Source of the DNA: Pachysolen tannophilus NRRL Y-2460
Lineage: Eukaryota
Direction of reading: 5' to 3'
Assembly (NCBI GenBank): GCA_001661245.1
Contig: KV454015.1
Coordinates: 1,104,924-1,152,060 of the forward strand
Length of the DNA stretch: 47,137 nucleotides
The first letter of the stretch is position 1. Every line of letters begins with the position of its first letter. Under the pieces are notes generated by a model. It saw only the letters and a list, made by a program, of their open reading frames with translations, searched no databases and was not told where the DNA came from. Below are positions 8,536-39,669 of the stretch, in pieces. The position numbers and the translations under genes were made by a program.

Positions 8536-10173
8536 ATGACATTTGATTTAGTTTCTTCTGTTTCCTTTATGAGGAATTTTGCGCTTAAGACCAAGAAGAC
8601 TATTTTAACTGATGAAGGATTAATAATTAAAAATGAACAAAAAGATTTTGAACAAAACGCTGATGGTTCAATTTTAACTATATGTTCCCCAGCTCCATCA
8701 TCTGAACATAGACATGGTATGTATTGGTTAAATTCAAATACATGCGCGTGTTTTTAAAATTTTATTTAGTACTGACAGTTTATTTTTTTTTTTGGCAATT
8801 GTGAATATAATTCACAATTGATTAATTTTTTATATTTAGTGCCTGAATTTATATCGTTTAAAAAAATATTATGGGTTCAAAAAATTGATGATGAAGTATT
8901 AGAAATTAGTTATGTTGTTTCTAAGAATCATAAACTTATACCTGCAACATTACTTACTATTATTGAAAATCCACCTATTGCAAATCTTGATGCATTAGTT
9001 GATAGATTGATGAAAAAATCATATGAAAATTCTTCACCTGCTAAGAATATGTTAATTATTATTAATCCTCATGGTGGTCAGGGGAAAGCTTTAAGGTTAT
9101 TTAATGATAGATGTAGACTGATTTTAGATGCTGCTCATGTTAATTATGAAGTTATGGAAACTAGTTATCATCGTCATGCAGTTGATATTGGTAAAAATTT
9201 GGATATTAATAAATATGAAATTATAACTTGTGCTTCTGGGGATGGTATACCTCATGAATTTATTAATGGGTTATATATGAGAGAAGATAGAGATGAATGT
9301 TTTAATAAATTGATTATTACACAACTTCCTTGTGGTTCTGGTAATGCAATGTCTATTTCATGCCATGGATCATTAGAACCATCAATTGCTACACTTTCAA
9401 CTTTGAAAAATAAAGTTGTAAAGACAGATTTAATGGCTGTTACGCAAGGAATTGGTTCTGAAGAAGTTACAAAATTATCTTTTGTAAGTCAAGCATATGG
9501 AATTATTGCAGATTGTGATGTTGGTACTGATTGGTTAAGATTTATTGGACCTTCTAGATTTGAATTAGGTGTAACGTTAAAAGTATTATTCCGTTCTAAA
9601 TATCCTTGTGATATTGCTATTAAATATCTGGCAAAGGCAAAACATGATTTAAATGAATATTATTCTGATCATGTTAATAAAAATAATTTAAATAATCAAT
9701 CACAAAAAGATGAAACTATTACTAAAGAAAATTTTAAAATTAAATTCCCAAAACTTGATGATCTGGTACCTTCAGATTGGGAAATATATGATCATGAATC
9801 TTCTAAAAATTTAGGAGTTTTTTATGTTGGTAAAATGCCATATGTTTCAAAAGATACAAATTTTTTCCCAGCTGCATTACCAAACGATGGAACAATGGAT
9901 CTAGTCGTAATGGATTCACGTACAAATATCCTCTCGACAGCTTGCGCTCTATTATCAGTAGAAAAGGGGACTCATGTATTACGGAAAGAAGTTCAACATT
10001 CAAAAATCTTAGCTTACAGACTTGTACCAAAAGCACTGAAAAGTTATATTTCAATCGATGGTGAAAGTTTCCCATTTGAACCTTTCCAAGTAGAAATTTT
10101 CCCAGGAACTTTGAAAACAATCATGAACGATGGCTCTTATATACCCACAGGATTTTCAGCAACCGTCAAATAA
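8536..10173 (+). CDS. LCB4: Sphingoid long-chain base kinase (Lcb4/Lcb5). Exon1 8536-8716, intron 8717-8839, exon2 8840-10173
   Basis: IINPHGGQGKA, ASGDGIPHEFINGL, LPCGSGNAM, FFPAALPNDGTMDL, ISIDGE. The intron GTATGT...TACTGAC...TTTAG joins the two ORF-track pieces in frame (G|TG = Val). Confidence 0.9.
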
Positions 10174-10659
10174 CTACACATTCCCTTTTTTTTTTTGACT
10201 TTTTTTTTTTTTGGCTCTGTCTCTCGTCGGTTTATATACTATCTATCTATCTATTATACCTTTTATCAAATCAATTTACTATTTAAATCATTTTTGTAGT
10301 GTACACAGTGGTCAAGTTCCAAATTAGGTAATTTTTTAATTTTTCACTTTTTTTTTTTTTTTTTTTTGTCCTTTTCTTTTATGTTAAAAGAAAAAAATTC
10401 TCTTCGTCGAAGGAAAGGAAATATAAGGTAAAGAAGAGATAGGTATTAAGATAAAATAATTATTTTTAATTTTAATTTAGAATAGATTTCATTAATCTTT
10501 TTCTAATTTCAGGCTTCTTTAATTCATAAAAATCTCTTTTTTTTTTCTTCTTCTTATTCTGATTCATATAGATAAAGAAAGAAAGAGAGAAATTTATTTA
10601 AAAAAAGAAAAAAATTATTATTATTATTTTTTATTATTATAAAATAAAGATTGGAAAAG

Positions 10660-12825
10660 ATGTCAGGTGCTGGAAATGGTCAACAGTATAACGGCGATGA
10701 CTTGTCGAAAGATTTGGAAAGATCTTCATTGAATGGTGGAGGTTCGGGTTCTCGTTTTAATCCAAGCAATGTTCAAGGTTTTCAACCAAATTTTGGTTCT
10801 CAGTCTTTTGTGCCAGGGCAATTTCAGCAACAACAACAAGCATATGCTCCATATCAGCAACAACAACAACCGCAACAACAGCAATTCCAGCAATTCCAGC
10901 CGCAGCAACAACAACAACAGCTGTCCTATGGTCAATACGGTTATAATAATGCTCCTTATAATAACAATTATAATCAAAACTACAATAATTTCAATAACAA
11001 TAATAAAGGTAATAATAATTTTAACAATTTTAATGGACAGCAACAGTCATATCAGTACCAGCCACAACAACAGCAATCCCAACAACCTCAAGCAATGTCC
11101 TTGGAGGATTATCAGAAACAGCAGAAGGAGAAGATGGCTTCTTTGAATAAGCCAATAAAGAAATCTTTAAAGCTTGATCTTAGTAGTAGCTCTGGTATTA
11201 AAATAGGTTCGGGTACTAGTACTGCGGCAAGTACTGCAAAGAAAGTAGATTCTGCTTCGGTTCCTGCTTCTACTTCAGTTTCTGCTTCAGCTTCTGTTAA
11301 TGAAAAGAAAGAAGAGCAACTGCCCCTGAAAGCGGAATCACAACCTCAACAACAACAACAACAACTGCAACCTGCTCTGGAGAAAAAGAAGGAATCAAAA
11401 GAAACTACCACTTCTTCTAACAAAAAAGATTCTTCAAAAACAGCAGCTTCACAAGCTGAATCAGCAGTTTCAAATGCAGATGCATTGGTCAAAGAACAAG
11501 AAGATGAAGTTGATCAAGAGGTTGTTAATGACATGTTTGGTGGTAAAGATCATCTTTCAATTATATTTATGGGTCACGTTGATGCTGGAAAATCCACAAT
11601 GGGTGGTAATATCTTGTATTTAACTGATGCTGTTGATAAACGTACAGTCGAAAAATATGAAAGAGAAGCTAAAGATGCTGGTAGACAAGGTTGGTATTTA
11701 TCATGGATTATGGATACCAATAAGGAAGAAAGAGCAGATGGTAAGACTATTGAAGTTGGCAGAGCATATTTCGAAACAGAAAAACGTCGTTATACAATCT
11801 TGGATGCTCCAGGACACAAGATGTACGTTTCAGAAATGATTGGTGGTGCTTCACAAGCAGATGTTGGTATCTTGGTTATATCTGCTAGAAAAGGTGAATA
11901 CGAAACAGGTTTTGAAAAAGGAGGTCAAACTAGAGAACATGCATTGTTGGCTAAGACTCAAGGTGTTAATAAACTTATTGTAGTTGTCAACAAAATGGAT
12001 GATGCAACAGTTCAATGGTCAAAAGAACGTTATGATGAATGTACCAATAAATTGGCAGTTTTCTTGAAAGGTGTTGGTTACCAAAAAAATGAAGTCATTT
12101 TTATGCCAGTATCTGGTTATACCGGTGCTGGTTTGAAGGACCGTGTCAGCAAGGAAGAATGTCCATGGTACGATGGACCATCTCTTTTAGAATACTTGGA
12201 TAATATGAAAACTGTTAACCGTCTTATCAATGCTCCATTCATGCTTCCTGTCTCTGGTAAGATGAAAGATTTAGGTACAGTTGTTGAAGGTAAGATTGAA
12301 AGTGGACATGTTAGAAGTAACCAAAAATTAATAATGATGCCAAATAGAACAAATGTCGAAGTAGTGACAATGTATAACGAAACCGAAGCTGAGACAGATG
12401 TTGCATACTGTGGTGAGCAAGTTAGAATCAAATTGAAAGGTATTGAAGAAGAAGATATTTCAAATGGATTTGTCTTGTGTTCTCCAAAATTCCCAGTCAA
12501 GACAGTTACCAAATTTGAAGCTCAAATTGCCATTGTTGAATTAAAATCCATCTTATCGACAGGATTCTCCTGTGTGATGCATATACATACAGCAATTGAA
12601 GAAGTCACTTTTTCTCTGTTGTTACATAAATTAGAAAAAGGTACTAATAGAAAATCAAAGAAACCACCTGCATTTGCCAAGAAGGGAATGAAAATCATTG
12701 CCATCTTAGAAACAGCAGACCCAGTATGTGTTGAGACATACGAAGATTATCCTCAATTAGGTCGCTTTACATTGAGAGATCAAGGTACAACCATTGCTAT
12801 TGGTAAGATCACCAAATTATTATAA
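10660..12825 (+). CDS. SUP35: Translation release factor eRF3 with Q/N-rich N domain
   Basis: GHVDAGKSTMGG, DAPGHKMYV, NKMDD, GRFTLRDQGTTIAIGKI. Q/N/Y-rich N domain followed by a charged M domain. Confidence 0.98.
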   Translation: MSGAGNGQQYNGDDLSKDLERSSLNGGGSGSRFNPSNVQGFQPNFGSQSFVPGQFQQQQQAYAPYQQQQQPQQQQFQQFQPQQQQQQLSYGQYGYNNAPYNNNYNQNYNNFNNNNKGNNNFNNFNGQQQSYQYQPQQQQSQQPQAMSLEDYQKQQKEKMASLNKPIKKSLKLDLSSSSGIKIGSGTSTAASTAKKVDSASVPASTSVSASASVNEKKEEQLPLKAESQPQQQQQQLQPALEKKKESKETTTSSNKKDSSKTAASQAESAVSNADALVKEQEDEVDQEVVNDMFGGKDHLSIIFMGHVDAGKSTMGGNILYLTDAVDKRTVEKYEREAKDAGRQGWYLSWIMDTNKEERADGKTIEVGRAYFETEKRRYTILDAPGHKMYVSEMIGGASQADVGILVISARKGEYETGFEKGGQTREHALLAKTQGVNKLIVVVNKMDDATVQWSKERYDECTNKLAVFLKGVGYQKNEVIFMPVSGYTGAGLKDRVSKEECPWYDGPSLLEYLDNMKTVNRLINAPFMLPVSGKMKDLGTVVEGKIESGHVRSNQKLIMMPNRTNVEVVTMYNETEAETDVAYCGEQVRIKLKGIEEEDISNGFVLCSPKFPVKTVTKFEAQIAIVELKSILSTGFSCVMHIHTAIEEVTFSLLLHKLEKGTNRKSKKPPAFAKKGMKIIAILETADPVCVETYEDYPQLGRFTLRDQGTTIAIGKITKLL

Positions 12826-12829
12826 GTAG

Positions 12830-13263: not shown

Positions 13264-14787
13264 ATGTCAAAGGAGGCGCATTTGTTTGTTTTGATTCATG
13301 GTTTATGGGGAGGTCCTAGTCATTTAGATGTTATCGAACATACGATTAAGGATCTATTGGATGATGAAAATGTTTATACTTTAAAACCCAAGAGCTTTGC
13401 TTATTTCAAGAGTTATGATGGAGTTAAAGTATGTGGCCAAAGAGTTATCGAAGAAATTTTCAAGAAATTATTAGAGTTAAAATCTGAAAAAGATGTCTTG
13501 GTTGTGAAGATTAGTTTTGTTGGTTATTCATTAGGGGGTTTGATTGCAAGATATTGTATTGGACAATTAATGAAGTTGGATAATTTCTTTGATCTCATAG
13601 AACCTACTTATTTTACAACTTTTGCAACACCTCATTTAGGTGTGAAATTTTTTAAGCAGAATGCATTGGATCGTATTTTAAATTTCTTGGGAACAAGATT
13701 TATTGGTCAATCTGGTAAAGATTTATTTATAGTTGATGATGATCAACTTTTATTGAAATTGAGTAATCCAGATGAAGTTTATTATAACGGGTTATTAAAA
13801 TTCAAGAAAAGGATTTTATTAGCAAATGTTCGTAATGATAGAACAGTTCCATTTTATACGGCATTTATTACCCAATATCAACCTTTTATTGATTGGGATA
13901 ATATTGTCTTAAAATATCATGAAAACTTACCGGAACTTTGTATTGGTAGAAAGAAACAATTTAGTGCTAATATTGTAAATTTAAAAGAATCAAAAAGAGT
14001 AGATGATGAAAATATGAGAGCTTATTCTTTTGATAGCATTATTCGTTATAGTATTATCACTCTTATTGTTTTCTTTGTCTTTCCCTTTTGGCTTCCACCG
14101 ATAATTATTGCTTCCTCAGTTGCCACTATTCAGTCATATTTTAGAATACGTTGGACTCCAGAATATAATCTTTCTCAAAAATGGGAAGAAACTCGTCAAC
14201 AATTATTTCAAAGCCTGAAAATTGTGGAAAATTCAATTGACAATGACAATGCTAGCGCTACAACTCTGACAGCTGAATTTTCTGAACTTACTGGTAACGC
14301 TGTTGAAGGTGTATTGGCAGCTGAAGAAAAATTCAATTCAAGAACGCTGAAAGAATCAAAGAAATCTACTTCTAGAGATAGCTCCAAGACTAGAAGTGAA
14401 CTAGAACCCAAGCTTCCAAAATACTTTGATGGGAAAGTTTCATACAACTATAAACGTGTCGCTTCTCTTTTGGCCAAAAAAAATGGATCTTCATCTTTTA
14501 AAGAAGACAATTATATTGATTTTACTACTAAATCACTAGATCAATTAAGTGATACTTATAAATTATTAAGCAATCCTGAAACTTTGGTGCAGTTTGATTC
14601 CACAAGACTAACTATTTTGAAAAATCTTAGCTCTATTCCATTCATAAAAATTCCGGTTTACATAGACGCAATTAATTCACACGATTCTATTGTCTCCAGG
14701 AGAGGTCTTCAAAGTAGTCCTAGAGGCTCCTCAGTTATTTTCCTATGGGGTTCTATGTTGAAATATTTTGAAGAAACTACTGCATAG
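13264..14787 (+). CDS. DUF676 lipase/serine esterase, Lpl1/Rog1-like
   Basis: HLFVLIHGLWG, SFVGYSLGGLIARY (GxSxG), TFATPHLG, NDRTVPFYT, and a hydrophobic segment as in the lipid-droplet phospholipase Lpl1. Confidence 0.85.
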   Translation: MSKEAHLFVLIHGLWGGPSHLDVIEHTIKDLLDDENVYTLKPKSFAYFKSYDGVKVCGQRVIEEIFKKLLELKSEKDVLVVKISFVGYSLGGLIARYCIGQLMKLDNFFDLIEPTYFTTFATPHLGVKFFKQNALDRILNFLGTRFIGQSGKDLFIVDDDQLLLKLSNPDEVYYNGLLKFKKRILLANVRNDRTVPFYTAFITQYQPFIDWDNIVLKYHENLPELCIGRKKQFSANIVNLKESKRVDDENMRAYSFDSIIRYSIITLIVFFVFPFWLPPIIIASSVATIQSYFRIRWTPEYNLSQKWEETRQQLFQSLKIVENSIDNDNASATTLTAEFSELTGNAVEGVLAAEEKFNSRTLKESKKSTSRDSSKTRSELEPKLPKYFDGKVSYNYKRVASLLAKKNGSSSFKEDNYIDFTTKSLDQLSDTYKLLSNPETLVQFDSTRLTILKNLSSIPFIKIPVYIDAINSHDSIVSRRGLQSSPRGSSVIFLWGSMLKYFEETTA

Positions 14788-15193: not shown

Positions 15194-17092
15194 TTACTCC
15201 TTTAAAGTGACATAATTTGCAGGAAATAATTTTCTGTCGGCACCAAATGTACCCAACCACCAATCTTCGTCAATAAATTCAATATCAGTAATCAAATCGC
15301 CTTCTTTGAAAGTCAATTCATTGTCTTCAGTGGCATCATAATCATAGTCGGCAATGGCATCTTTACCACTAGAGACTCCAGGCTCATGGCTTTCTTCTGT
15401 TTTTGGTTCCTCTTTTGCAGACTCAGCATCCAGTAATTTGACATATGAAGATGGGAATAATCCTGTTTCGCCTTTGGAATTGGTACCTTTCCACCAATCT
15501 TCATCTGCAAACACTATATTAACTATCAATTCACCTTCTTCAAAAGAGATTTCGTTATCTTCATCTTTATCGTAGGAATATTCTGCAATGGCCTTATGTT
15601 GTGAAGTTTCATCCGGTTCTTGTCTAGCCGGTGGTGGAGGTACTGCTCGTTCTTCTTTTACTCCATCTTGTGCATGTTCAGCCAAAGGTGGTCTACTAAA
15701 AGTTTCCTGTTGTGGTTCAACTTTTTCTTCATTCTCTTCCTTCTCTTCATCTTCAGAAGGTTTGGTAAAGGAAGATGCAATATTGTGTCTTGCCGCTACT
15801 GGAGGTGGTGAAAATTCATTTTGTTCCTCTTCACTTTTCTTAGATTCTTGTGCTAATCTCAGTTTAATATCACCAATATGCACATTCTTTGTTTCTTCCG
15901 CTTCATCTTCTGCTTCAGTTGAAACATATTCAGTTTTTTCTTCTGGTTCTACAAAAGACTTGGTTGAAACATTGTTATCTTTTTCTTCTGGTTCTACAGA
16001 CTTGAATTTACCATGTTTCTCGGCCCAAATTTGTGCTGGAGTCTTTCCATTTTCAGCTCCAAAATCACGGGATGCACCACCAATAACTTTATTGTCATGT
16101 TTACCAGATAAAGAGTAAGGAGTAGGTGGTTTGGTACCGAATGAAGGAGCTTTAACTTCATGATATCTTGAACTAACAGTATGCGAGGTACTTGGTCTTG
16201 GTAAAGAAGTTAACCTTCCATTTGATGAAGTATCATTGTCTTTAATTGAGAATGATTTTATTCTTTCATTTAAAGACTCAGGTTCTAAGTTTTCTTCTTT
16301 CTTGGTTGATACCTCATCATCTCTTGATTTAGTCACTGGAGTCGAGGAAATAGTATCATTTTTACCTTTTCTCAATTGTTCAATATTTACCTTTGTTGGT
16401 TTATAAGCAGAAGGTAAATTTTCTAAAGGTTTTTTATTAAAATCTCTAACTTCAGTTTCTGCTTCACCATCCCATTCATCGGCATCTTCTTTAGATACAA
16501 TTTTCCAATCATCTTCAATTCTTGAAGAAGGCTTCAGTTTCGTAGGAGGTGCCGGCTTTGAAGCAGAAACAGGTTTAGAAACAGAAGATGAAGAAATAGG
16601 TGTAGGAGCAATCTTCAGTTTTGGTGAAGAAGATTTTGAAAATAAATTTGACGCAGTAGATAATGATTGAATTGAATATCTTGCGCCTGCAGCATCACTT
16701 ATAGTTTTCAAGATATCATTAACATCCAAATCATCCGCATCTCTAGCAGTGATTTGAACATGATAACCTCTCAAGACTTTACTAACTTCACCAAAATTGG
16801 CTCCAAATGAAATCTTAGATTTTAAAGGACAATTTTCAGGACACCAACCTAATAACAACAATTTCTTAACATCGGAACCAGGAGCGGTAACCTTGGCTAA
16901 CCCAAACTGAACTTTACCATCCTCAAATTCAGAAACAAAATCAGCAATGCCACCAACATCCCCACCGGTTGGTTTTAAAGCAGAATTGGCATCCACAGTG
17001 AACACCGTATACGAATCTTCCGAACTTGTAACAACTCTGTTATAGTCTTCCTTAATTTCTTTTGAAAAAGTGGCCAAATCCAACTTCTCCAT
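15194..17092 (-). CDS. ABP1: Actin-binding protein Abp1 (ADF-H domain plus two SH3 domains)
   Basis: ADF-H (GSDVKKLLLLGWCPE, GYHVQITARD, AAGARYSIQ), GKTPAQIWAEK, two C-terminal SH3 domains ending GLFPSSYV and LFPANYV. Confidence 0.95.
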   Translation of the reverse strand: MEKLDLATFSKEIKEDYNRVVTSSEDSYTVFTVDANSALKPTGGDVGGIADFVSEFEDGKVQFGLAKVTAPGSDVKKLLLLGWCPENCPLKSKISFGANFGEVSKVLRGYHVQITARDADDLDVNDILKTISDAAGARYSIQSLSTASNLFSKSSSPKLKIAPTPISSSSVSKPVSASKPAPPTKLKPSSRIEDDWKIVSKEDADEWDGEAETEVRDFNKKPLENLPSAYKPTKVNIEQLRKGKNDTISSTPVTKSRDDEVSTKKEENLEPESLNERIKSFSIKDNDTSSNGRLTSLPRPSTSHTVSSRYHEVKAPSFGTKPPTPYSLSGKHDNKVIGGASRDFGAENGKTPAQIWAEKHGKFKSVEPEEKDNNVSTKSFVEPEEKTEYVSTEAEDEAEETKNVHIGDIKLRLAQESKKSEEEQNEFSPPPVAARHNIASSFTKPSEDEEKEENEEKVEPQQETFSRPPLAEHAQDGVKEERAVPPPPARQEPDETSQHKAIAEYSYDKDEDNEISFEEGELIVNIVFADEDWWKGTNSKGETGLFPSSYVKLLDAESAKEEPKTEESHEPGVSSGKDAIADYDYDATEDNELTFKEGDLITDIEFIDEDWWLGTFGADRKLFPANYVTLKE

Positions 17093-18032: not shown

Positions 18033-19727
18033 ATGGCGTCTAAAGCTTTAACTGTGGTGGTTAAAAAGAAAAAGACAAAGACGTATTCTGGATGTTGGAC
18101 TTGTCGGGAACGAGGTTTGAAATGTGATGAATCAAGACCAAGCTGCTTGCCCTGTATAAAAAGTGGTCTTAACTGTGCTGGATATTCTGCTAGATTATGT
18201 TGGGATCATAATCATACTGATAATTTGAGAAGATTGATAATTTATAATCATGAGAAATATCTGTACATGATGAAAAATGATGTTGAAATTAATTCACTCT
18301 TGGAAGGCATTGATGCATTAGATGAAAATGAATTTGATTCATCTATGAATCTTGAAAGATTTTTACCCTTTGGTGTTTTCCCAATTAAAAATTCTAATAC
18401 ACAACTGGATTTTTCCGAAAAATTGCCATCGGAAACAATTTTATTAGAATTTTGGGAAAAAAAAGTATTACCATTGTATATGCCATTTGGAGAAGATTCT
18501 AAAATTTTTGGAAAAATTGTACAGTACTATTTATCTTGTACTCACAATAATGATGTTTCTGAAAAAATTTTGAAAAATAGTTTATGTTCCTCATCGTTAT
18601 TGGTAATGTCACTTAACAGTAACAATAACAAGTCTGAGAAATTGCAAAGTTATTATCATTCTTTAGCAATTGGTTTTAGAAACAAATCGTTTAATGCTAT
18701 AGTTGAGATTTTAGAGAAAAATATAACTCCAGAAGATCAATACATAATAATGGTTGCCGAACTCAATTTTCTTTTAACAGAATCAATTGCAAGATTTGGT
18801 GATAATGCTGTTAATTGGTTTGATCATCTCAAATATTCAGCAGAAATCTTACAAAAGATAAAATTTGAAACATCAACTATTGATAGTGATTATAAAAATG
18901 TTTATTTTATGAGTCAATATATAAAATTTCTTTGTGCAACTTCATTTACAGTAAATTATTTTATGGATATAAATCCTTCTATTTTAATCATTGATGAAAA
19001 TGATTTAATATTTGATAAAAAAAATGGATTTATTCTTGATAATTATGGGATTAATAGATGTGCATATTATTGTTTTTCAAAATTGGTAAGTATTGCCAAA
19101 AAAAATTATAATTATGATAGGCTGAAAAAATTGAAAAATAACAATATAAGTTTATTTGCCAATTGGAAATCAATGGAATATTATTTAGAATCACAATTGG
19201 AAGTTTTCCAAATTGAGGCTACTTTATGGCATGAAAAGGAAAGATTTATAGTTAAAGATAAAGGTGATTTAGTATATGAACGGTCTTTTATTTTTTATTC
19301 AGGATTATACGTTTATTTTTTAAGAGAATTTTATAGTACCAATCATTATGAGAATTCAACTCAATCAGTTATTGATGAATGTTTAGTACATCTTGAAGCT
19401 TTTTTAAAAATAATACAAGAAAAATCAAAATCATCATTAAAGGAAAAAAAAAATTTTGAAGATAATAATAATTTTTTCGCAATTGGGTTAATTTGGCTGC
19501 TTTTAATGATTGCATCAGAATCAAGAAAACCAAAATCTCAGGAATCTTGTTTAAAAATATTTAAAACTTTAAAAGAATCAAATAAAGTTAAAGTCACATC
19601 TATAAATTGTTGCATTGATATAGTTAAAGAGTACTGGAGAAAAAGAGATCAAGGGTTAAACAACAGTAAATTACTTATTAACACCATTATAAATGAATTA
19701 CAAGTATATGACATCTTACTATACTAG
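18033..19727 (+). CDS. Zn(II)2Cys6 transcription factor (Arg81-like cluster, probable Fungal_trans_2 C-terminus)
   Basis: KTYSGCWTCRERGLKCDESRPSCLPCIKSGLNCAGY six-Cys cluster followed by RLCW. Confidence 0.85.
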   Translation: MASKALTVVVKKKKTKTYSGCWTCRERGLKCDESRPSCLPCIKSGLNCAGYSARLCWDHNHTDNLRRLIIYNHEKYLYMMKNDVEINSLLEGIDALDENEFDSSMNLERFLPFGVFPIKNSNTQLDFSEKLPSETILLEFWEKKVLPLYMPFGEDSKIFGKIVQYYLSCTHNNDVSEKILKNSLCSSSLLVMSLNSNNNKSEKLQSYYHSLAIGFRNKSFNAIVEILEKNITPEDQYIIMVAELNFLLTESIARFGDNAVNWFDHLKYSAEILQKIKFETSTIDSDYKNVYFMSQYIKFLCATSFTVNYFMDINPSILIIDENDLIFDKKNGFILDNYGINRCAYYCFSKLVSIAKKNYNYDRLKKLKNNNISLFANWKSMEYYLESQLEVFQIEATLWHEKERFIVKDKGDLVYERSFIFYSGLYVYFLREFYSTNHYENSTQSVIDECLVHLEAFLKIIQEKSKSSLKEKKNFEDNNNFFAIGLIWLLLMIASESRKPKSQESCLKIFKTLKESNKVKVTSINCCIDIVKEYWRKRDQGLNNSKLLINTIINELQVYDILLY

Positions 19728-19842
19728 CGATGTGTTTATATATATACATATATATATAGAGAGTATAGATAGATCTTGAGATTACGAATACAAATCTCTC
19801 TTAGTGCATTTTAGAAATGGAAATTAAATAAAAAAAAAATTA

Positions 19843-19915
19843 TGGACGAGATCGGAATCGAACCAATGACCTTCTGCTTGCAAGGCAGACGCGCTACCAA
19901 CTACGCCACACGCCC
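19843..19915 (-). tRNA. tRNA-Ala(UGC)
   Basis: GGGCGTGTGGCGTAGTTGGTAGCGCG-TCTGC-CT TGC AA-GCAGA-AGGTC-ATTGG TTCGATT CCGAT-CTCGTCCA. G3:U70 Ala identity pair. T-run terminator downstream. Confidence 0.96.
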
Positions 19916-20159
19916 AGTATTTATTTTAAACACGGAGACAAAAACAAACTACTGCAGCAGCAGATTGATTGATTGAAATCATATCTTCTTTCAAATTAAC
20001 ACCTTTTAAACATCAATGAAGAAAATAGTGAATAAGTTCTTGGGAAAATATGATTAAGAGCATTTGAATTAGAAAAGCCAAAATAAAAAGAAGAGAAATG
20101 AATTTTGATTTTTTTGTCCTTTTTTTTTTTTTTTTTTAATTATTTTTTTTATTGTTTAG

Positions 20160-23988: not shown

Positions 23989-24416
23989 ATGAATTCTGAA
24001 AGACGTAAGTATTTTCTTCTTTATTATATATGATATATTCTATTCATATTGTATTTTGTTTGGTCTTTTTTTGGTTTCACTAACATTTAAATAATTGTTC
24101 TATAGCAAATAATGTATTACAACAAATTCCATTAACTTTGAAACAAAACAGTCTTACAAACAACAAGGCAATAACACTACCATTCGAATATCAACAAATC
24201 ATTCCTTATAGAAAGATCGATTCAGGAGATTATCAAAAGAAATTGGACAGTTTACAATTGGAACTTGAAGGTTTTAAAACTGAACTTGAGGAAAAATCAC
24301 TTCAATTACAACAGAAAAGAGAAATTTTTAATACTTGGAAAAATAGTACTGTAAATAAATTACTGCCGGGATACTTGGATAATACAGAACACATTTTAAA
24401 ACCAAAAGAGAGATAA
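23989..24416 (+). CDS. Small coiled-coil hypothetical protein. Exon1 23989-24004, intron 24005-24105, exon2 24106-24416
   Basis: ATG AAT TCT GAA AGA C|GTAAGT...CACTAAC...TATAG|CA AAT joins in frame with the track ORF at 24138. C-terminus is KL[CTG]PGYLDNTEHILKP. Confidence 0.72.
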
Positions 24417-27376: not shown

Positions 27377-28189
27377 ATGAGTTCCGAAATCATAGCAGAG
27401 GGGGAAAAGCATCTTAAGAATATTCCTTTGGAGGTAATATCTCAAGGAGCAGAAGCACTTATTTTTCGGACAAGTGTTCATCCATACTTACCAGATGGAA
27501 TCAGTCCTGCATTGTTTAAGAATTCTTCATCATATATCATTAAATATAGACCCAAGAAAAAATATAGACATCCAATCTTAGATGTACAGATTACAAAATC
27601 CAGAACGATATCGGAGGCCAAGTTTTTACAAAGATTATTTCAACTTAATATCAGAGCTCCTAAATTGATCTCAGTTGATCTGGCTAATGGTATAATATGG
27701 ATGGAAGATATTGCTGAAAAATTACCAAATGAGAATCCTAGTTCTTTGAAAAATTGGCTTTGGTTTTTAGAACAGAAATCAGAGCAAGATGGTTCTGGTT
27801 GTAGTACAGATCTTGTTGTTGAACAATTGATGATAAATGTTGGGAAATCAGTGGGTGAAATACACTTGAACGATATTGTACATGGAGATTTGACTTCTTC
27901 TAATATACTTTTGGTAGCAGATGATGATGGGGTATGGAATCCAACACTAATAGACTTTGGGTTAAGTTCTGTCTCAGCATTGGTTGAGGATAAAGCAGTT
28001 GATCTATATGTTTTGGAAAGAGCATTGCTTAGTACTCATCCTGTTTATTCTAAATTGTATAATGAATGGTTATTAAAAGGTTATGAGGAAATATATAAAG
28101 AAGGAAACAAGGCAAAGAAGTGCAAAGAAGTTTTCAGACGATTAGAAGATGTCAGGTTAAGAGGAAGAAAGAGAAGTATGTTAGGTTAA
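27377..28189 (+). CDS. BUD32: KEOPS/EKC kinase Bud32
   Basis: ISQGAEA, YRHPILD, HGDLTSSN, LIDFGL, EDKAVDLYVLERA, VRLRGRKRSMLG*. Confidence 0.97.
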   Translation: MSSEIIAEGEKHLKNIPLEVISQGAEALIFRTSVHPYLPDGISPALFKNSSSYIIKYRPKKKYRHPILDVQITKSRTISEAKFLQRLFQLNIRAPKLISVDLANGIIWMEDIAEKLPNENPSSLKNWLWFLEQKSEQDGSGCSTDLVVEQLMINVGKSVGEIHLNDIVHGDLTSSNILLVADDDGVWNPTLIDFGLSSVSALVEDKAVDLYVLERALLSTHPVYSKLYNEWLLKGYEEIYKEGNKAKKCKEVFRRLEDVRLRGRKRSMLG

Positions 28190-29303: not shown

Positions 29304-30341
29304 CTATAAGTTTTTAATTAATGGAACTGAACCTTCTGCAGCTTTTTTAAAACTCAGATTTGAATATGGAGAATAGCTCAAGGGTAAAAATTTATCCATT
29401 AAAATATTCTGCAACAATGAAAACCCATTTGAACTAATCCAATATAGACCTAATGCTGCTGGAGCTTGAGTAGAGACAGCAATGAAGAAAGCAATAGAAA
29501 ATCTTGATAAATTGGTCAGCATATCAAATATTGTTGGTCTAAAAGACAATTTTTTCCCCTTATTAGTGAGATTCATCAATTGAATATTTTTGTAATTATA
29601 TTCAACATTTGAAAGTGCCATTAATCCTAATAAAAATGGTAATAAATTATAAGGATCTGGCAAAGTTAAATCAGTAATCCATTGGAAACCTTCTGTGCTC
29701 AATGTTGGGTCAATAGGTTTAACGTTATAACCCAAGACATCCAGTCTCCAACCTGTTAAATTTCTAAATGTTAAACTCAATGATATCCATAATGGAATTT
29801 GTAATAATGGTAAAGTGAAATTTTTCCATATTTGACATTTATTCTCTTTAAAAATTTTCTTTTGTCTTTTCCTAACTTCTTTTGTTGATAATAACATAAT
29901 CTTTTCATAACTCAAATCGGGAGCAGCAAGTAAATCTGTAGCAGCTTTCTGCTGCTGCTGTTGCTGCTGTCGCTGTTCCTGCTGATAATGTTTATTTCCT
30001 AATCTGTGTCTTATTACTGGACCCATTGCGTTTATTAATGGTCTTAAAGAATTCTGCCTCTGTAATCTTTTCCTATTTAATATTGCTAAAGGCAACGTTA
30101 GCACCGACCTAAGCACAAAAGTCGATATAGGAATAAATATGTACCATGGTAAACCACTTATCTGATGAACATATTGAAGTGAATCCGTTAACGAATGTAA
30201 AGTTGATACAAATGGTTCAAATGAAATGGTTCTTCTCTGCTGAAATGACTTCAAATTCCCCCTATTAATATTCACATTAACCGATGCTAGTATCCCACCC
30301 GGCAAAGCTTTACCACACCTGCCTGCTATTACCAAGAACAT
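29304..30341 (-). CDS. COX18: Mitochondrial Oxa1/YidC-family insertase Cox18
   Basis: VHQISGLPWYIFIP..TFVLRSVLTLPLAI, LPLLQIPLWISLSL, DLTLPDP, AALGLYWISSNGFSLLQN. Confidence 0.9.
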   Translation of the reverse strand: MFLVIAGRCGKALPGGILASVNVNINRGNLKSFQQRRTISFEPFVSTLHSLTDSLQYVHQISGLPWYIFIPISTFVLRSVLTLPLAILNRKRLQRQNSLRPLINAMGPVIRHRLGNKHYQQEQRQQQQQQQKAATDLLAAPDLSYEKIMLLSTKEVRKRQKKIFKENKCQIWKNFTLPLLQIPLWISLSLTFRNLTGWRLDVLGYNVKPIDPTLSTEGFQWITDLTLPDPYNLLPFLLGLMALSNVEYNYKNIQLMNLTNKGKKLSFRPTIFDMLTNLSRFSIAFFIAVSTQAPAALGLYWISSNGFSLLQNILMDKFLPLSYSPYSNLSFKKAAEGSVPLIKNL

Positions 30342-30894: not shown

Positions 30895-31530
30895 TCATAT
30901 ACAATCTAATATAATATCTTGAATGATTTTCCCTCTTGGAGGTATTAATTGTTTTAAACCGTTGTTATTAGATAAAGCTTTATTTATGCATTTAATTAGT
31001 TCTTTATTATTGTAATTATCTTTACAATATATTAATAATTCTTTTTTTTCAAATTCATTTATAATATCTAATTGATGAGAATCCAGTAATTCTTGATTAT
31101 TTAAAACAATTAATTTTTTATTTAATCTTAAAGAATCTAAAATCGATCCTGTTCCTCCATGAGATATTATTAATGAAGATTTAGAAGAATAATTTAAAGA
31201 TAAATCTTTATCAAAAGATATTCCTTCCACTATAAAATTACCAATTTTTATTGGTAAATTATACAAAATTGTTATTTTGGATTCATCATTTGAACTAAAT
31301 TCTTCCTTATAGTGAAATTCATTTTTTCCAAAATCTTTACTTAAAGAATTATGTAATGTTTCTAATTCTTTTAAATAAAAATCTTTTGAATTTGAACTAT
31401 TACCAAATTGAATAATTAATTTAGTAAAATTTAAATCAATTAAATGATTGACAAATTCTAATGATAATGATAACTTGATCAATGGCCTGAAAGTTACTGT
31501 AGCACCTGTGGTAACCAATACAAACTTCAT
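30895..31530 (-). CDS. ALG13: UDP-GlcNAc transferase catalytic subunit Alg13
   Basis: VLVTTGATVTF, LIIQFG, LIISHGGTGSILDSLR, NQELLDSHQ. Confidence 0.92.
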   Translation of the reverse strand: MKFVLVTTGATVTFRPLIKLSLSLEFVNHLIDLNFTKLIIQFGNSSNSKDFYLKELETLHNSLSKDFGKNEFHYKEEFSSNDESKITILYNLPIKIGNFIVEGISFDKDLSLNYSSKSSLIISHGGTGSILDSLRLNKKLIVLNNQELLDSHQLDIINEFEKKELLIYCKDNYNNKELIKCINKALSNNNGLKQLIPPRGKIIQDIILDCI

Positions 31531-31755: not shown

Positions 31756-31827
31756 GGGCGTGTGGTCTAGTGGTATGATTCTCGCTTTGGGTGTGAGAGG
31801 CCCTGGGTTCAATTCCCAGCTCGCCCC
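31756..31827 (+). tRNA. tRNA-Pro(UGG), intronless
   Basis: GGGCGTGTGGTCTAGTGGTATGATT-CTCGC-TT TGG GT-GTGAG-AGGC-CCTGGGTTCAATTCCCAG-CTCGCCCC, followed by a poly-T terminator. Confidence 0.96.
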
Positions 31828-32069: not shown

Positions 32070-33542
32070 TTAATCTGCCTTATCACCCATCACTTGTTTC
32101 ACAGGTTCTTTATCATATAAATACAAACCATGTTCTTGGATATACCGTATCACAGAATTTGGTAACAAATATTGAACACTCATTCCTCTTCTTATAAAGA
32201 GTCTAACTTTTGTAGAAGAAATATCATTATAAATTAATTGTGTTATAACTAAGATATTTTTCCTATGTTCATACATGATGTCATGTGACAAGAGGAAACT
32301 TCTAACATCTGAACCAGTACGTTCAACTATTAAACAACCATACCTACCTAATATATGATGTAAATCTTGATCTGCCCATACGTTTGGTTCTCCCATTGAT
32401 TCAATCAAATCTCCACCTGCTAATAACATAATCTTTACACCTCTATAATTACCATCAACATCTTTAATACCACCTCTCTTGATATTTATTTCTTCATTAA
32501 AATGATCAAGGACTAAAGCAGTTCTAGTATATCTAGGTTGTAAAGATTCCCATGCATCAACCATAAGCCAACTTGAAGTTCTTTCACAAGCTAATTCACA
32601 CATTCTAACTCTATGATGAGAAGGGGCTAGCCCTTGTTTTCTATAATTATCACTTACAGGAGAATAATAACCACCAATTACTTCAAATCTAGTACTTTCT
32701 CTTATAGAATCAAGAGCCATTTCAAACATTCGAAGATGCAAATAAGTGATTGGAGAAAATGAACCACACGCCACTATAACCAATGGATATTTCGAAGAGT
32801 CTTGAAGTGTTGTAGCTAATCTATGAGTTGGAAATTTATAAGATTCCAATTTTCTTGATTGACGAATAATACCATGAGGTAATTCTTCTAAATCTGCAAT
32901 TTGAAAAGAATGGACTCTAGGTACTGTTGTATGATTTATGAATAATGCTTCTGATTCTGTGCTTTCACTTTTCTTCATCTTTTCACTATTACTCACATTA
33001 CTATTCTCCTTCTCACCATCATCATTATCAACAACTGCCACCTCAGTATTAAGTTGATTTCCATTACCATTTCCATTGGCATTGCCATTACCATTACTGA
33101 GTTTGTTATCCTGCAACAGTTCAGATACTTTTCCTTCTATAAATTTCTCTTGATTCTTAATATTATTATTATTGCTTTGCAAATTATTATTATTATCTTC
33201 GGAATCACTCGAAGACGACAGCGGTTGCAATTGAGTAGCAGCCCTTGGTATCTTATGATGTTTTATCTTTTCACCACCATTAATATTAGGTAAACCTATT
33301 GGAGATGAAGAATTTCTGCTTCTATTATTATTAATATTATTAGTAGTGGTTGAAGTATTATTATTGTTGTTGTTCTGCATTGTTGCTGGATGAGGCGATG
33401 GCGCATCGATTGAAAAACAAGAATCAGCCAATACGTATGGTTGCACAGTAGGATTATTCGGTATCACCGAAGATGAAGCAGTCGGTGTGATATTTGGATT
33501 TGATAAAGGCGGTATGAAATTTGGGTCTTGGGTTGGATCCAT
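32070..33542 (-). CDS. NMA1: Nicotinamide/nicotinate mononucleotide adenylyltransferase (Nma1/Nma2)
   Basis: MDPTQDPNF start, ACGSFSPITYLHLRMFE, WLMVDAWESLQ, LLAGGDLIESM, NDISSTKVRLF. Confidence 0.95.
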   Translation of the reverse strand: MDPTQDPNFIPPLSNPNITPTASSSVIPNNPTVQPYVLADSCFSIDAPSPHPATMQNNNNNNTSTTTNNINNNRSRNSSSPIGLPNINGGEKIKHHKIPRAATQLQPLSSSSDSEDNNNNLQSNNNNIKNQEKFIEGKVSELLQDNKLSNGNGNANGNGNGNQLNTEVAVVDNDDGEKENSNVSNSEKMKKSESTESEALFINHTTVPRVHSFQIADLEELPHGIIRQSRKLESYKFPTHRLATTLQDSSKYPLVIVACGSFSPITYLHLRMFEMALDSIRESTRFEVIGGYYSPVSDNYRKQGLAPSHHRVRMCELACERTSSWLMVDAWESLQPRYTRTALVLDHFNEEINIKRGGIKDVDGNYRGVKIMLLAGGDLIESMGEPNVWADQDLHHILGRYGCLIVERTGSDVRSFLLSHDIMYEHRKNILVITQLIYNDISSTKVRLFIRRGMSVQYLLPNSVIRYIQEHGLYLYDKEPVKQVMGDKAD

Positions 33543-34288: not shown

Positions 34289-36660
34289 TTAATGTTCTAA
34301 ATATCTGTAAAGAAAATTGGCAGCAAGGCTTATTGCTAAACAAGCGCATATTATTCTTGGACCAATTTGGTCGTCGTACCTGACAGCCCTTTTTTTCCGT
34401 ATATTAAAGACTCTCCATAAGTACATGCACATGGCGTAAAAAATGGTGGTAAAAGCGGTAATGAAAAAACCTATGCTTCCCAATAATGAGACTGTGTTAC
34501 CGTAATTTAATAATGTTGAAGCAGTAGCACCTAATAACATACCGATTGTAGTCCAATTTAAATAGGTACGTTCTGTGGCAAAGTAAACTTTTGGTTCAAC
34601 TCTTACTGGAACTGCAATTTTTTTACCTGGTGGAGCGGTAATTTTTGTATCAAAAGATGTACCTTGAGGAACCTTGTTAAAACGATGGTCTGGTTTAATG
34701 ATTTCTTGGATATATTTTTCTATTTTTTGTAATAGTGAAAGATTGTTGTCTTCACCAAGACCGCTGAAACCATTAAGACCTCCAACACCATTGCCCTGTT
34801 TAGACAGTCTTCTACTTGAAAGTAACGGTGTATTTTCGGAATCGTAGCTATCGCCACGTCTTGTACCTGGTGAAAATTGAACTACTGGCAGTCTACTACC
34901 GCCACCAGTACCAGTACCACTAGCAATACCACTGTTATTGCCAGAGCCGCTTCCACTTCCGGAAGCGGACCCGGTACCGGAAGCATTGCTACCTGGACCA
35001 CTACCACTACCGCCGTGCAAACTTTCCTCTCCAGTATCATTTGTAGAAGAATAACTTCCAGTTCCTGTAGTTGCACTTCCAATAAATTCTTCTTCATCCA
35101 TTTCACCATAACTACTACTACCTGCAGTTAATGAATGATTATTTTGTCTAATAATACCAAATTCTTCATTTTTTTTCGGTTTCCTAATATCTACATCCAT
35201 TTGTGGTAACCAAAATGGAATAAGATTAATTTGATTTGGTAATAAAGAAGCACAACCATGAATAAATTTAGAAAATTTTGGAACAGCTTCAACAAGATGA
35301 GAACTAACCAATTCTCTAACCCAAGTTGGAGGTTCTTGACCCATTTGAGTTTGAAGTTTAACTTCCAATACTGCATATGGAAATCTACAAACATCCTTTT
35401 CAGGTAAATTTTCAAATGGATAATCAATACCAATATCCATTCTACGCCAATTACCTCTAGTACGATCAATACCATCAAAATTATCTTCTCTAACCATGGT
35501 TAATTCAGTATCTAAAGAAATTCTAACTCTTGCATCACCTGGAAGTTGGAAAGCTGTTCTATTATAAAAAGAACGCATAACAGGTCTCATTTTATCTTTA
35601 ATGACTCTATATTGAACTTCATTAGCTAATCTTTCTAAACTTTCAATTTCTTGTGGAGATTTTTTTTTTCCTTTCTCATTTTATCAAAAGCCATTGGTAC
35701 AGTAAATTTACCTTTCATAAAATCGTTTACATTTTTTTCTTTTAAAGTAAATCTTGCTTTTACAGATTTTTCACCAGTCCAATCTTCTCTATGAGTTTTC
35801 CTTTCAACAAAAATTGTATCAGTAGACATACCACCATACCATCTTAATCTTATAGCTTCTGCACCTTCATCTTTTAATAATCTACCATAATATAAATCCA
35901 TATTTTTATTATCATAATAAATTGAAGTAATAGCACTATCTTCTTTTTCAAATTCTTTTGATGCATTGAAAACTAAAACAGGTAAATGTTTTAAAATAAT
36001 TAATTTCAATTCAGTAATATTATCTGGATGAACCCAATATTTTGTAGTTTGTCTAACAAAATTTTGTTGAGATCCACCAGCTGATGAATCACCTTTTACA
36101 GGATTACCACGAGTTCTAACTAAATCATAAAGTTTAGAAAGTTTAACAATTAAATCATCATAATTATCTTTATAAAAAGCTCTTGCATCCAATCTAGCTT
36201 GAAAAATTGGTTTTAAAATATATTCATTATTAGTTTGTTTATCATGTTTTTTCAAAATTTTTTGAAATCCAATATAATTTAATCTAGAAAATTTTGCTAA
36301 ATCATGAACATCAGCAATAATATCACTTAATTCTTCTTCTAAATCTTCAAAATCTTGTTCAAAAAGTTCCAATTCTTGTTCATTTGAACAACTTTTAGAA
36401 TTTTCAACAGTTTGATAAACTAGCAGTTCAATATTTTTAATTCTTCTTAAAATTTCTTCATGTTTCATATGAACAAAATTGAAAACTTTATTCAATTCTT
36501 TCTCTAAAATAGAAACAAAATCTTCTTCTAATTCATTTGTCCATTGATTATTACTAACTGATAAACCTTTTTTTAATCGATGTTTTAAATCATCATACTG
36601 AATATAATAATAATTATAATCTGGTATTAAAGATGATTTTAAAGTTTCTCCAAACTTCAT
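34289..36660 (-). CDS. VTC4: Vacuolar polyphosphate polymerase Vtc4 (SPX-VTC-TM), split by a 1-nt frameshift at A10 (35660-35669)
   Basis: MKFG SPX start, [20 protein letters not shown], then in a shifted frame [17 protein letters not shown]...[39 protein letters not shown]. Confidence 0.93.
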
Positions 36661-37280: not shown

Positions 37281-37286
37281 ACGCGT
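37281..37286. promoter_or_regulatory. MCB element ACGCGT
   Basis: About 180 nt upstream of the CDC45 ATG. CDC45 is an MBF-regulated G1/S gene in S. cerevisiae. Confidence 0.65.
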
Positions 37287-37467
37287 GTGAGTGAAAGCGT
37301 GTGAGAAGTATACAGTGAGAAGTGAAAGCAAAAGAGTAGATAGCTTCTATATATTGTGATTGAACTTTTTATCAATTTTTAAATTTTTTTCATCTTTTTT
37401 CATTTACATCGATTGATGGATATATATATGAATCTGGACAAAAGTGTTTGAATTTGAATTTCCGGTT

Positions 37468-39669
37468 ATGTATTTAAATCCTTCAGAATTTTCCAAAGCT
37501 TTTGAAGATATCAAATCCACGTCTCTTTCACATTCAACTTGCAAATTAGTAATATTTGCTTCGTGTTTGAATGTTGATGCCATATGTGCTTCAAAAATCC
37601 TCACTCTGGTGTTGAAGAAGAACTTGATTTCGTTTCAGTTGATTCCAGTTGTTGGGTATAGTGATTTGAAATTGAAATTTAGTAATTTGGATATGGATAT
37701 TAGAAATGTGGTAATATTAGGGTGTGGTGCAATGGTTGATTTAGAAACATATTTGGAAATAGATAATGAAAGTACTGATGAAAGAAAGATTTATGTTATT
37801 GATGGACAAAGGCCTTGGAATTTGGATAATATCTTTGGATCGCATACTATAGTTTGTTTTGATGATGGGTTAATAGAAGAGAAATTGGAAAAAGAGAAGG
37901 CAGCATATATGGTTTTGGTTAGCATTGATAGTGAAGCTGAGGAAGAAGATGATGATGAGGAAGAAGAAGAAGAAGAAGAAGAAGAAATTCAAGATGATGA
38001 TGAGAATTCTTCACAAGGGAAACGAAAGATACAATCAACTAATGGATCATCTTCAAAGAAAAGAAAGTTATTTCTAGATGAAAATGAAAAAATAATTGAA
38101 AATTATTATAATATGGGTACTACCACTATAACTTCCATATCATTACAAATTTATACTTTATTATCAACTATTGGTGAAACAAGTTTAGAACCTTTATGGC
38201 TTACAATTGTGGGTACTTCAACATTTATTCAACAGTTCCCCAATATATATGATCGTATTTTCCCAGTCTTGAAAGATGAAGTGATAAGATTAGAACAAAG
38301 TAATATACAAAATCGTCAAAATACAGATTTTTATAATGGTAATAATATGAATAATACAAATAATACAAGAACTCCAGATACAAATAATTTAATAATAGAT
38401 AAAGATTATTCTCTTTTTCTATTAAGACATTGGAATTTATATAATTCATTTTTTTATTCAAATTTAGTAAATTCAAAATTACAATTATATACAGTTGAAG
38501 GAAGGAAAAATTTAAATAAATTATTTGCAAAAATGGGGATATCATTAAGTCTGGCAAATCAAAATTGGAAATATTTAGATATAGATTTGAAAAAAAAATT
38601 AAACTTCATTTTCCAAAAATATTTAAAATTTTATGATTTAGAAAAAATAATTAAAGATGGATTTATTAAAAATTTTGGTTATAAAGGTAGTATTTCAGCA
38701 AATGAATTTGCTGAAGCAGTTACTGCGCTTTTAGAATATAATCATGATATTAAAATTAACAAAAATAATTTAGATCTGGAAGTAACGAAAAATGGTATTG
38801 GAGAACATCATAATGAAAATAAAAGGAAACAGAATGGTACTAATAATGGCAATTATGAAGAAGAAAATGATGATGCAGATTCCGACGCTGATAACGTAGA
38901 AACTGATGATGATGAAGCACAAAAAGTCACTAGATTAACACTGAAACGAGAAGCACAATATATTACAAATTTTTGGAAATCTTTTGATTCATTATCAAAT
39001 TTTGAACTTATCTTGAAAGGTTTAAAAATTGCCAAAATTCAACAAAAATTAATTTTTGATAAAGGTTTTGAAATTTTTGAAAAAAGATCAATTAAAAATT
39101 TAAGAGTTTTCAGATTAGTTGTTTTAAAAGATGATTTGATTTCTATTAACAATAATAATAATAATTATGGCAATGTTAATGGACACGGTAATGTGAAAAC
39201 TGCTAGTGGTTCTGGTGGTAATGATGAAGATGAAGATGAAGATGATTCTAGCTTTATTAAACTATACAGTGCAAATAAGAATTTCTTTCAAAACCCATTA
39301 ATGTTAACAAAATTAGGTAATTGGTTATTAGAATGTTGTTCTGAATTAGATTCTCAGAAAAATAAAGATTTACCATTGATTATAGCAGCTTTAGACCCAG
39401 AAACTGATACTTATTTATTATGTGGTTTATCATCATTAAATAGAAAAAATGATAATGACGGAGATACTAAACGTGAAAATCACGATAAAAACGAAAATAT
39501 TGAAGAAAATAATGATGAAAATTTGAGAATTAATAAATTTTCTCAAAGTTTCCAAAAAATAGTTCAAAGTACAGGTGTAGCTGCAAAGATTGATAGCTTT
39601 GATGGAACAGTTATAACTATTAAAAAAGAAGATTTACAACCTTTTTTAGAAAGATTATGCTTTGTATAA
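37468..39669 (+). CDS. CDC45: DNA replication initiation factor Cdc45
   Basis: SLSHSTCKLVIFASCLNVDAICA, IYVIDGQRPWNLDNIFGS, YSLFLLRHWNLYNSFFYS, NPLMLTKLGNW, DLQPFLERL. Confidence 0.96.
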   Translation: MYLNPSEFSKAFEDIKSTSLSHSTCKLVIFASCLNVDAICASKILTLVLKKNLISFQLIPVVGYSDLKLKFSNLDMDIRNVVILGCGAMVDLETYLEIDNESTDERKIYVIDGQRPWNLDNIFGSHTIVCFDDGLIEEKLEKEKAAYMVLVSIDSEAEEEDDDEEEEEEEEEEIQDDDENSSQGKRKIQSTNGSSSKKRKLFLDENEKIIENYYNMGTTTITSISLQIYTLLSTIGETSLEPLWLTIVGTSTFIQQFPNIYDRIFPVLKDEVIRLEQSNIQNRQNTDFYNGNNMNNTNNTRTPDTNNLIIDKDYSLFLLRHWNLYNSFFYSNLVNSKLQLYTVEGRKNLNKLFAKMGISLSLANQNWKYLDIDLKKKLNFIFQKYLKFYDLEKIIKDGFIKNFGYKGSISANEFAEAVTALLEYNHDIKINKNNLDLEVTKNGIGEHHNENKRKQNGTNNGNYEEENDDADSDADNVETDDDEAQKVTRLTLKREAQYITNFWKSFDSLSNFELILKGLKIAKIQQKLIFDKGFEIFEKRSIKNLRVFRLVVLKDDLISINNNNNNYGNVNGHGNVKTASGSGGNDEDEDEDDSSFIKLYSANKNFFQNPLMLTKLGNWLLECCSELDSQKNKDLPLIIAALDPETDTYLLCGLSSLNRKNDNDGDTKRENHDKNENIEENNDENLRINKFSQSFQKIVQSTGVAAKIDSFDGTVITIKKEDLQPFLERLCFV

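Follow-up and report, generated by a model that had tools for sequence, protein, structure and literature searches.

The yeast order Alaninales comprises the genera Pachysolen, Nakazawaea and Peterozyma. Reading of the codon CUG as alanine is now treated as a diagnostic character of this order (PMC11182611). A study from 2014, which used alignment only, reported no Pachysolen CUG at highly conserved leucine positions and assigned a serine code (PMC4986446). This assignment was corrected to alanine by mass spectrometry in 2016 (PMC4937558). The 2016 report gives, from liquid chromatography–tandem mass spectrometry of Pachysolen tannophilus, alanine at 97.2% of the fully supported CUG positions, with CUG as unambiguous as AUG, and describes a tRNA(CAG) with G3:U70, A73 and a short variable arm. 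Here, we analyzed the CTG codons of a 47,137-base stretch of DNA (called the window here; 29.7% GC), which holds 22 open reading frames (ORFs) of at least 150 amino acids (aa) with 10,934 codons in total. The window very probably comes from a CUG-Ala budding yeast, a member of the order Alaninales (NCBI translation table 26), in which CUG is read as alanine; the genus is most likely Pachysolen. An earlier note on this DNA had proposed this meaning, with serine as a possible alternative, and the proposal is borne out by alanine at all 19 CTGs with a public record and by an alignment that rejects leucine (−7.4 nats). It had also held that the code itself is established, which is the case (NCBI table 26; the reassignment was published in 2016). 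CUG as alanine is correct here but not new; it is already known and in use for the records of these genes.

Public copies of four genes carry alanine at the CTG codons. The Mch2-like MFS transporter (39776..41296, minus strand) has six CTGs (41179, 41125, 40537, 40465, 40093 and 39817). Its public copy (P0121) differs from our translation, in which each CTG is written as X, only at these six codons, and has alanine at 6/6. The public copy (P0243) of the Lag1/Lac1 ceramide synthase (2236..3459, minus strand) has alanine at 3/3 CTGs (3186, aa92; 2340, aa374; 2322, aa380). Sup35/eRF3 (10660..12825, plus strand) has six CTGs, five in the N/M region (10921, 11320, 11326, 11365 and 11377) and one at 12616 (aa653), and its exact table-26 translation is present in NCBI, UniRef and nr (P0241). 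The same is true of the Abp1-like ORF (ADF-H and two SH3 domains; 15194..17092, minus strand) with four CTGs (16618, 16537, 15862 and 15433), whose exact table-26 translation is found in NCBI, UniRef, nr and MetaClust (P0242). In total, the public records of MFS, Lag1, Sup35 and Abp1 have alanine at 19/19 CTGs. In the public collection, the exact look-up gave no match for the table-1 translation of Sup35 or of Abp1, and none for the table-12 translation of Sup35. Cdc45 (37468..39669, plus strand) was not found under tables 26, 1 or 12, and a GTPase ORF (MMR_HSR1; 3945..5927, minus strand; four CTGs at 5411, 5108, 4334 and 4328) was not found under tables 26 or 1. The public gene models of these two probably differ from the window ORFs. 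The depositors have already applied CUG=Ala to the genome.

Homologue searches were run with each CTG translated as X, which kept the query neutral. The Lcb4 set consisted of 120 homologues among the matches listed. For MFS, 108 of the 120 listed were used, as the 11 most distant rows were dropped together with the window's own record, and for Lag1, 119 of the 120 listed (the window's own record was dropped). For Cdc45, 133 of 150 representatives with lengths of 480–900 aa were kept. Fifteen of the 17 CTG sites in these four proteins lie in columns with at least 60% occupancy. Across the four sets, the mean leucine fraction was 0.13 in CTG columns, compared with 0.52 for TTA, 0.54 for TTG, 0.54 for CTT, 0.58 for CTA and 0.37 for CTC. 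The fraction of L, I, V, M and F together (LIVMF) was 0.38 for CTG versus 0.76–0.84 at the other leucine codons. The difference in leucine fraction between CTG and CTT/CTA/CTC (36 sites) gave a p value of about 3e-5. Codon rarity is not the cause of the low leucine fraction, because the rare codons CTT, CTA and CTC keep values of 0.37–0.58.

A test similar to Codetta was then applied, in which a profile hidden Markov model was built per homologue set without the query, the query was aligned to it, and log-odds were summed over the match states for each codon. As a control, each of the other 34 codons that had 16 sites or more was called correctly in 96–100% of 200 draws of 16 sites (mean 99.8%). 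CTG (16 sites, four proteins) was the single codon without a call. Its summed log-odds, in nats, were +0.9 for glutamine, +0.7 for threonine, +0.4 for alanine, 0.0 for glutamic acid, 0.0 for serine and, far down the list, −7.4 for leucine. The leucine score was +14.7 in 16-site samples of TTA/TTG (minimum 5.9 in 1000 draws), +15.4 for the rare leucine codons CTT/CTA/CTC (minimum 9.3), and +7.0 for leucine sites matched for column information (minimum 1.7 in 500 draws). CTG does not act as an ordinary leucine codon, and this conclusion holds strongly. With the validated test, 16 sites are enough to exclude leucine for CTG. The new amino acid cannot be identified in this way, because the reassigned codons are young and stand at unconstrained positions.

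Two further measures were dropped. The hydropathy of neighbouring residues (±5 residues, 59 CTG sites) reflects where CTG is located and not what it means; the surroundings of CTG are more polar than those of any of the 20 amino acids, and their difference from the alanine contexts (p=0.0004) is greater than that from the leucine contexts (p=0.007). The self-versus-background ratio of column frequencies gave 0.16 for leucine, 0.15 for alanine and 0.14 for proline, and did not discriminate.

In the 22 ORFs, 59 in-frame CTGs were counted (5.4 per thousand codons; 2.7 per ORF), and at least one is found in 18 of the 22 (82%). CTG (59) is more common than CTC (14) or CTA (42) despite the AT bias. 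For P. tannophilus, 80% of genes are reported to contain CUG, with 16,824 CUG codons in 5,288 genes, and the figures of the window match these published ones (PMC4937558). Nine CTGs had been named in the earlier note. All nine have the coordinates and peptide contexts given there, and eight lie in ORFs with clear family matches (9628 in the kinase, the six of Sup35, and 38551 in Cdc45). The ninth (24363) lies in a candidate open frame of 110 codons without ATG (24084..24416, plus strand), for which no Pfam match was found at or below E 0.001. The note had also found no in-frame CTG in RPB2 or MES1. Our count is likewise zero in RPB2 (41794..45522, minus strand, 1242 codons) and in MES1 methionyl-tRNA synthetase (24714..27017, plus strand, 767 codons). 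The zero in RPB2 is explained largely by codon bias, because CTC and CTA are also 0 there. With the standard code, translation would be wrong at 59 positions in 18 of the 22 larger ORFs, and automatic ORF tracks for this genome therefore need table 26. This has practical value but is not a discovery.

The individual sites were compared with their homologues. The Lcb4/5-type sphingoid base kinase (9010..10173, plus strand) has four CTGs. Its homologues have proline in 120/120 at aa37 (9118), alanine in 68/120 at aa207 (9628), proline in 60/120 at aa252 (9763), and L24/I20/V19 at aa343 (10036). The column at aa207 (57%) is the single alanine-majority column among the 15 alignable CTG sites. The motif KYAAKSK, given in the note for S. 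cerevisiae Lcb4/5, can be read in Lcb4 and in the paralogue row P0062, which we took as Lcb5. The CTG at 9118, opposite the invariant proline, and the one at 27680 in Bud32, opposite a proline of S. cerevisiae, could each reflect a change from CCG to CTG that is tolerated, or an error in the assembly. In Lag1 (119 homologues), the columns are A32/V30/I17/L11 at aa92, F85/V14/A7 at aa374 and L93/A14 at aa380. The note had offered aa374 (YWLxLI) as a counter-example, and S. cerevisiae Lac1 and 85/119 homologues indeed have phenylalanine there. Alanine is the second most common residue at aa380 (14/119) and occurs in 7/119 at aa374, and at both sites it is found in Pichiales relatives such as Brettanomyces nanus. 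Alanine is thus tolerated at these positions, and the counter-evidence is softer than it looks.

In Cdc45 (133 representatives), aa47 (37606) is S26/T24/A15/L7, aa437 (38776) is nearly all gaps, and aa492 (38941) is 55% occupied with A12/S10. A small residue had been expected at 38551 (aa362); S. cerevisiae has threonine, but glutamic acid and glutamine dominate among the representatives (E50/Q45). At the eRF3 site (aa653), where lysine, glutamic acid or alanine had been expected, lysine is present in S. cerevisiae and Schizosaccharomyces pombe, and the other two residues are seen in neither. The MFS column at aa494 is L/F/I. MFS aa40 (serine fraction 0.28) and Cdc45 aa47 (0.20) are serine-rich CTG columns. 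The Trm10 tRNA m1G9 methyltransferase (6197..7126, plus strand) has CTGs at 6218 (aa8), 6440 (aa82), 6932 (aa246) and 7115 (aa307). S. cerevisiae Trm10 has leucine at aa82 and also at aa246, another counter-example of the note (LCxNKA), while aa8 and aa307 are unaligned. The aligned S. cerevisiae residue is proline for the CTG of the Bud32 kinase (27377..28189, plus strand; 27680, aa102) and methionine for that of Alg13 (30895..31530, minus strand; 31086, aa149). The Oxa1-like insertase (29304..30341, minus strand) has CTGs at 29744, 29519 and 29357, and its aa275 lies opposite a methionine of human OXA1L in a weak alignment only. The two CTGs of the Nma1-type NMN adenylyltransferase (32070..33542, minus strand; 33221 and 33119) are in its low-complexity N-terminus, which aligned to no solved structure; the remaining counter-example of the note (QPxS) falls in this region. 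Vtc4 is present as two ORFs (35635-36660 and 34289-35590, together 34289..36660, minus strand) with one CTG in the N-part (36426) and two in the C-part (34891 and 34807); the latter two lie in a linker that was unaligned in the solved-structure search.

A single aligned residue was available for 16 CTG sites, 12 from the solved-structure searches and 4 from the comparison of the Lcb4 sites with S. cerevisiae Lcb4; 15 of the 16 come from S. cerevisiae and one from the weakly aligned human OXA1L. Counted by type, they are L 4, P 3, A 2, K 2, M 2, F 1, T 1, V 1 and S 0. Leucine, proline, methionine and valine, which have codons (TTG/CTN, CCG, ATG and GTG) one base change away from CTG, thus make up ten of the 16, and this fits young codons born by point mutation. 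CTG would not easily be found at conserved alanine positions, since GCN is two changes away from it.

The Lag1 tree is a single-gene tree of 29 rows with no named Alaninales sequence and no Ascoideales row. The clade labels of its rows are our own, based in part on PMC5951914. The window pairs with a Logan-derived protein (SH-aLRT 93), and this pair falls outside the Ser1 (100), Leu1 (99) and sampled Pichiales (91) clades, within a polytomy. The nearest named relatives among the matches listed are Kuraishia capsulata (58%) for Lcb4, and Komagataella, Brettanomyces nanus and Ogataea (65–66%) for Lag1. Kuraishia, Komagataella and Ogataea are assigned to the 'Leu2' clade, which is reported to have split from the Ala clade deep within the former Pichiaceae (PMC5951914). 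Matches from Ascoideales are more distant (Saccharomycopsis Lcb4 52%, Ascoidea MFS 43%), and no Ascoideales Lag1 is found among the best 120 matches.

The closest Lcb4 relative among the matches listed is a Logan-derived protein (P0002) with 60% identity. It has leucine at 3 of 16 columns with at least 60% alanine, while each of the other 119 homologues has leucine at most at 1. Leucine is also observed at three further alanine-majority columns, and two of its six columns are alanine in 117/120 and 105/120. Leucine replaces the near-invariant alanine in NFFP-A-ALPNDG (A 117/120), and it is also present at the column of the window CTG at aa207. From these residues, P0002 is probably a protein of a CUG-Ala yeast whose public entry was made with the standard code.

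Several results weigh against the alanine reading. The 19/19 agreement with public records shows the choice of the annotators and not the behaviour of the ribosome. The alignment itself has no preference for alanine, which scores below glutamine and threonine and level with serine and glutamic acid. The alanine score of +0.4 at CTG compares with +13.7 at ordinary alanine codons and +8.2 at information-matched ones (minimum 3.2). No window CTG is found at any of the 38 columns with at least 60% alanine in Lcb4, MFS and Lag1. CTGs occur where homologues have hydrophobic residues or proline (Lag1 aa380 and aa374, Trm10 aa82 and aa246, Lcb4 aa37 and Bud32 aa102), and Lag1 aa380, in a column of 78% leucine, is the one exception to the avoidance of the leucine pattern by CTG. 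ARAGORN and Rfam revealed no tRNA(CAG) in the window, only a tRNA-Ala(UGC) and a tRNA-Pro(UGG) (31756..31827). The tRNA-Ala(UGC) (19842..19916, minus strand) is an ordinary one and the sole alanine tRNA of the window; it starts with 5' GGGC (G3 opposite U70), has A73, and is not the CUG decoder. A named sequence of Pachysolen, Nakazawaea or Peterozyma appeared in none of the homologue searches. The site-by-site argument for alanine made in the earlier note is weaker than it looks, as the alignment gives +0.4 for alanine and 0.0 for serine. The choice between these two amino acids rests on the annotation and on the published proteomics, not on the alignment of the window.

A serine meaning would make the window similar to the CUG-Ser1 (table 12) or CUG-Ser2 yeasts. 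The scores do not separate it from alanine, the two serine-rich columns at MFS aa40 and Cdc45 aa47 would suit it, and the alignment-only study that gave Pachysolen a serine code did so for the same kind of reason (PMC4986446). We nevertheless consider serine very unlikely. The public copies have alanine throughout, and neither of the two table-12 translations looked up (Sup35 and Cdc45) is present, while the table-26 Sup35 is. CTG is found at 0/38 columns with at least 60% serine and serine at 0/16 single-residue sites, and the serine score of 0.0 at CTG compares with +12.3 at real serine codons and +9.0 at matched ones. The Lag1 tree keeps the window out of the Ser1 clade (support 100), and the Ascoideales matches are the more distant ones. 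An ordinary leucine meaning, with CTG looking odd because it is rare at 30% GC and stands at poorly conserved sites, could account for leucine at 4/16 single-residue sites, for Lag1 aa380 (93/119) and for MFS aa494. The absence of CTC and CTA from RPB2 also means that codon bias explains much of the CTG absence there. However, the other rare leucine codons retain their leucine and LIVMF fractions, the information-matched controls never fell below +1.7 nats where CTG gave −7.4, CTG outnumbers both CTC and CTA in spite of the AT bias, and the public collection has no table-1 translation of Sup35 or Abp1. The leucine meaning is extremely improbable.

Two other explanations would keep alanine, but not as the only meaning of CUG. 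CUG might be decoded ambiguously, with another amino acid besides alanine, much as Ascoidea asiatica decodes it stochastically as serine or leucine. The CTG sites fit no single amino acid's conservation pattern, some stand at hydrophobic or proline positions where alanine looks costly, and dual decoding exists in another yeast (PMC6041473). Ambiguity is something that sequence alone cannot show, and the reported P. tannophilus spectra, with 97.2% alanine, make CUG as unambiguous as AUG (PMC4937558). As alanine also occurs at Lag1 aa380 and aa374, including in Pichiales relatives, it is tolerated at such positions, and we give ambiguous decoding a minute probability. Alternatively, decoding could depend on the site, with a near-cognate or second tRNA giving another residue at a minority of CTGs, which would not be a clean reassignment. 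The sites behind this idea are Lcb4 aa37 (proline in 120/120), Bud32 aa102 (proline in S. cerevisiae), Lag1 aa380 (leucine in 93/119) and aa374 (phenylalanine in 85/119). A plainer reading, that these four came from CCG, TTG or CTN codons by point mutation and are tolerated, fits, because leucine (4), proline (3), methionine (2) and valine (1) among the 16 aligned residues have codons one base change from CTG. Site-dependent decoding is highly unlikely.

The identities of the remaining ORFs, like most of those above, come from Pfam matches. The Hse1-like ORF (VHS and SH3 domains; 2..1822, minus strand) runs past the window edge and has five CTGs (first bases on the minus strand: 1402, 1231, 433, 325 and 307). 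The DUF676 putative serine esterase (13264..14787, plus strand) has three (14215, 14266 and 14347), each outside the Pfam domain. A Zn2Cys6 transcription factor (18033..19727, plus strand) contains four (18261, 18405, 19122 and 19497), and a Vps3844-C domain protein (22555..23691, plus strand) contains two (22990 and 23374). Below the 150-aa cut-off of the inventory, we noted two small genes on the plus strand, a DUF2462 protein (20881-21162; E 5.7e-19), in which codon 5 is CTG (MAQG-x-LKLK), and a CYSTM protein (7596-7970; E 4.9e-14), which has one CTG and an N-terminal part rich in glutamine, tyrosine and proline. The opposite strand of the CYSTM gene has 11 CTGs in one frame, which are complements of CAG (glutamine) codons. 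Just downstream of Trm10, a short stretch (7123-7400) is unusually rich in G+C compared with the 30% GC of the window, and both of its strands have open frames rich in Gly, Ala and Arg. The letters at 20160-20746 are 587 consecutive N, about 240 bases away from the gene for tRNA-Ala(UGC), and may represent a gap in the assembly. Five sequencing runs from two studies contain the stretch, and no RNA run is listed among them.

Two gene models in the window differ from their ORFs. In the Lcb4/5 kinase gene, an upstream exon starts with the ATG at 8537, and approximately 8727 to 8839 is a probable intron (GTATGT ... TACTGAC ... TAG). The ORF of 387 aa therefore covers the gene in its downstream part only. 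Its homologues have approximately 160 residues ahead of the region that matches this ORF. No copy of the window's own Lcb4 protein is found among the matches listed in the Lcb4 homologue search. In Vtc4, the frame switches between 35635-36660 and 34289-35590 at a run of ten A (35660-35669, minus strand). The continuing frame aligns with S. cerevisiae Vtc4 from residue 351 on, and no intron signals are seen at 35660-35669. The switch is either an assembly error in homopolymer length or a real frameshift.

For the reading of CUG as alanine, we take the tRNA mechanism and the actual incorporation of alanine from the literature or infer them. In the proposed mechanism, the ancestral tRNA-Leu(CAG) would have been lost with CUG usage falling, and in Pachysolen a duplicated GCU-decoding tRNA-Ala would have gained a CAG anticodon and captured the codon (PMC4937558). 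With G3:U70, A73 and the short variable arm retained, this tRNA-Ala(CAG) would be charged by alanyl-tRNA synthetase (PMC4937558). The capture would work because this enzyme reads G3:U70 and A73 and not the anticodon. Most present CTGs would then be young codons, created by point mutations at sites that tolerate them, and this would be why they avoid conserved leucine columns and match no amino acid's pattern. The window data agree with this consequence of the mechanism, a young class of CTGs at tolerant sites.

The window can be compared with three known systems. In CUG-Ser2 yeasts (Ascoideales: Ascoidea and Saccharomycopsis), CUG was likewise reassigned in an AT-rich budding yeast lineage. 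The meaning there is serine (serine and leucine, stochastically, in Ascoidea asiatica) and not alanine, and members of this group are only 43–52% identical to the window proteins. The CUG-Ser1 code (Candida/Debaryomyces, table 12, Serinales) shares with the window the reassignment of the same codon and the depletion of CTG at conserved leucine positions. It was reached by the same general route as the alanine code, in which tRNA-Leu(CAG) was lost and CUG was then captured by a tRNA that is charged without regard to its anticodon. It differs in its serine meaning, and the window lies outside Ser1 in the Lag1 tree, lacks the two table-12 translations looked up in the public collection and has no CTG at a conserved serine column. 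No difference was found from the Pachysolen tannophilus code (table 26) and the Ala clade. In the single-gene Lag1 tree, the window adjoins the sampled Pichiales but stays outside them, and it resembles this system in the alanine at 19/19 public CTGs, in CTGs without a leucine conservation pattern, and in the presence of CTG in about 80% of genes.

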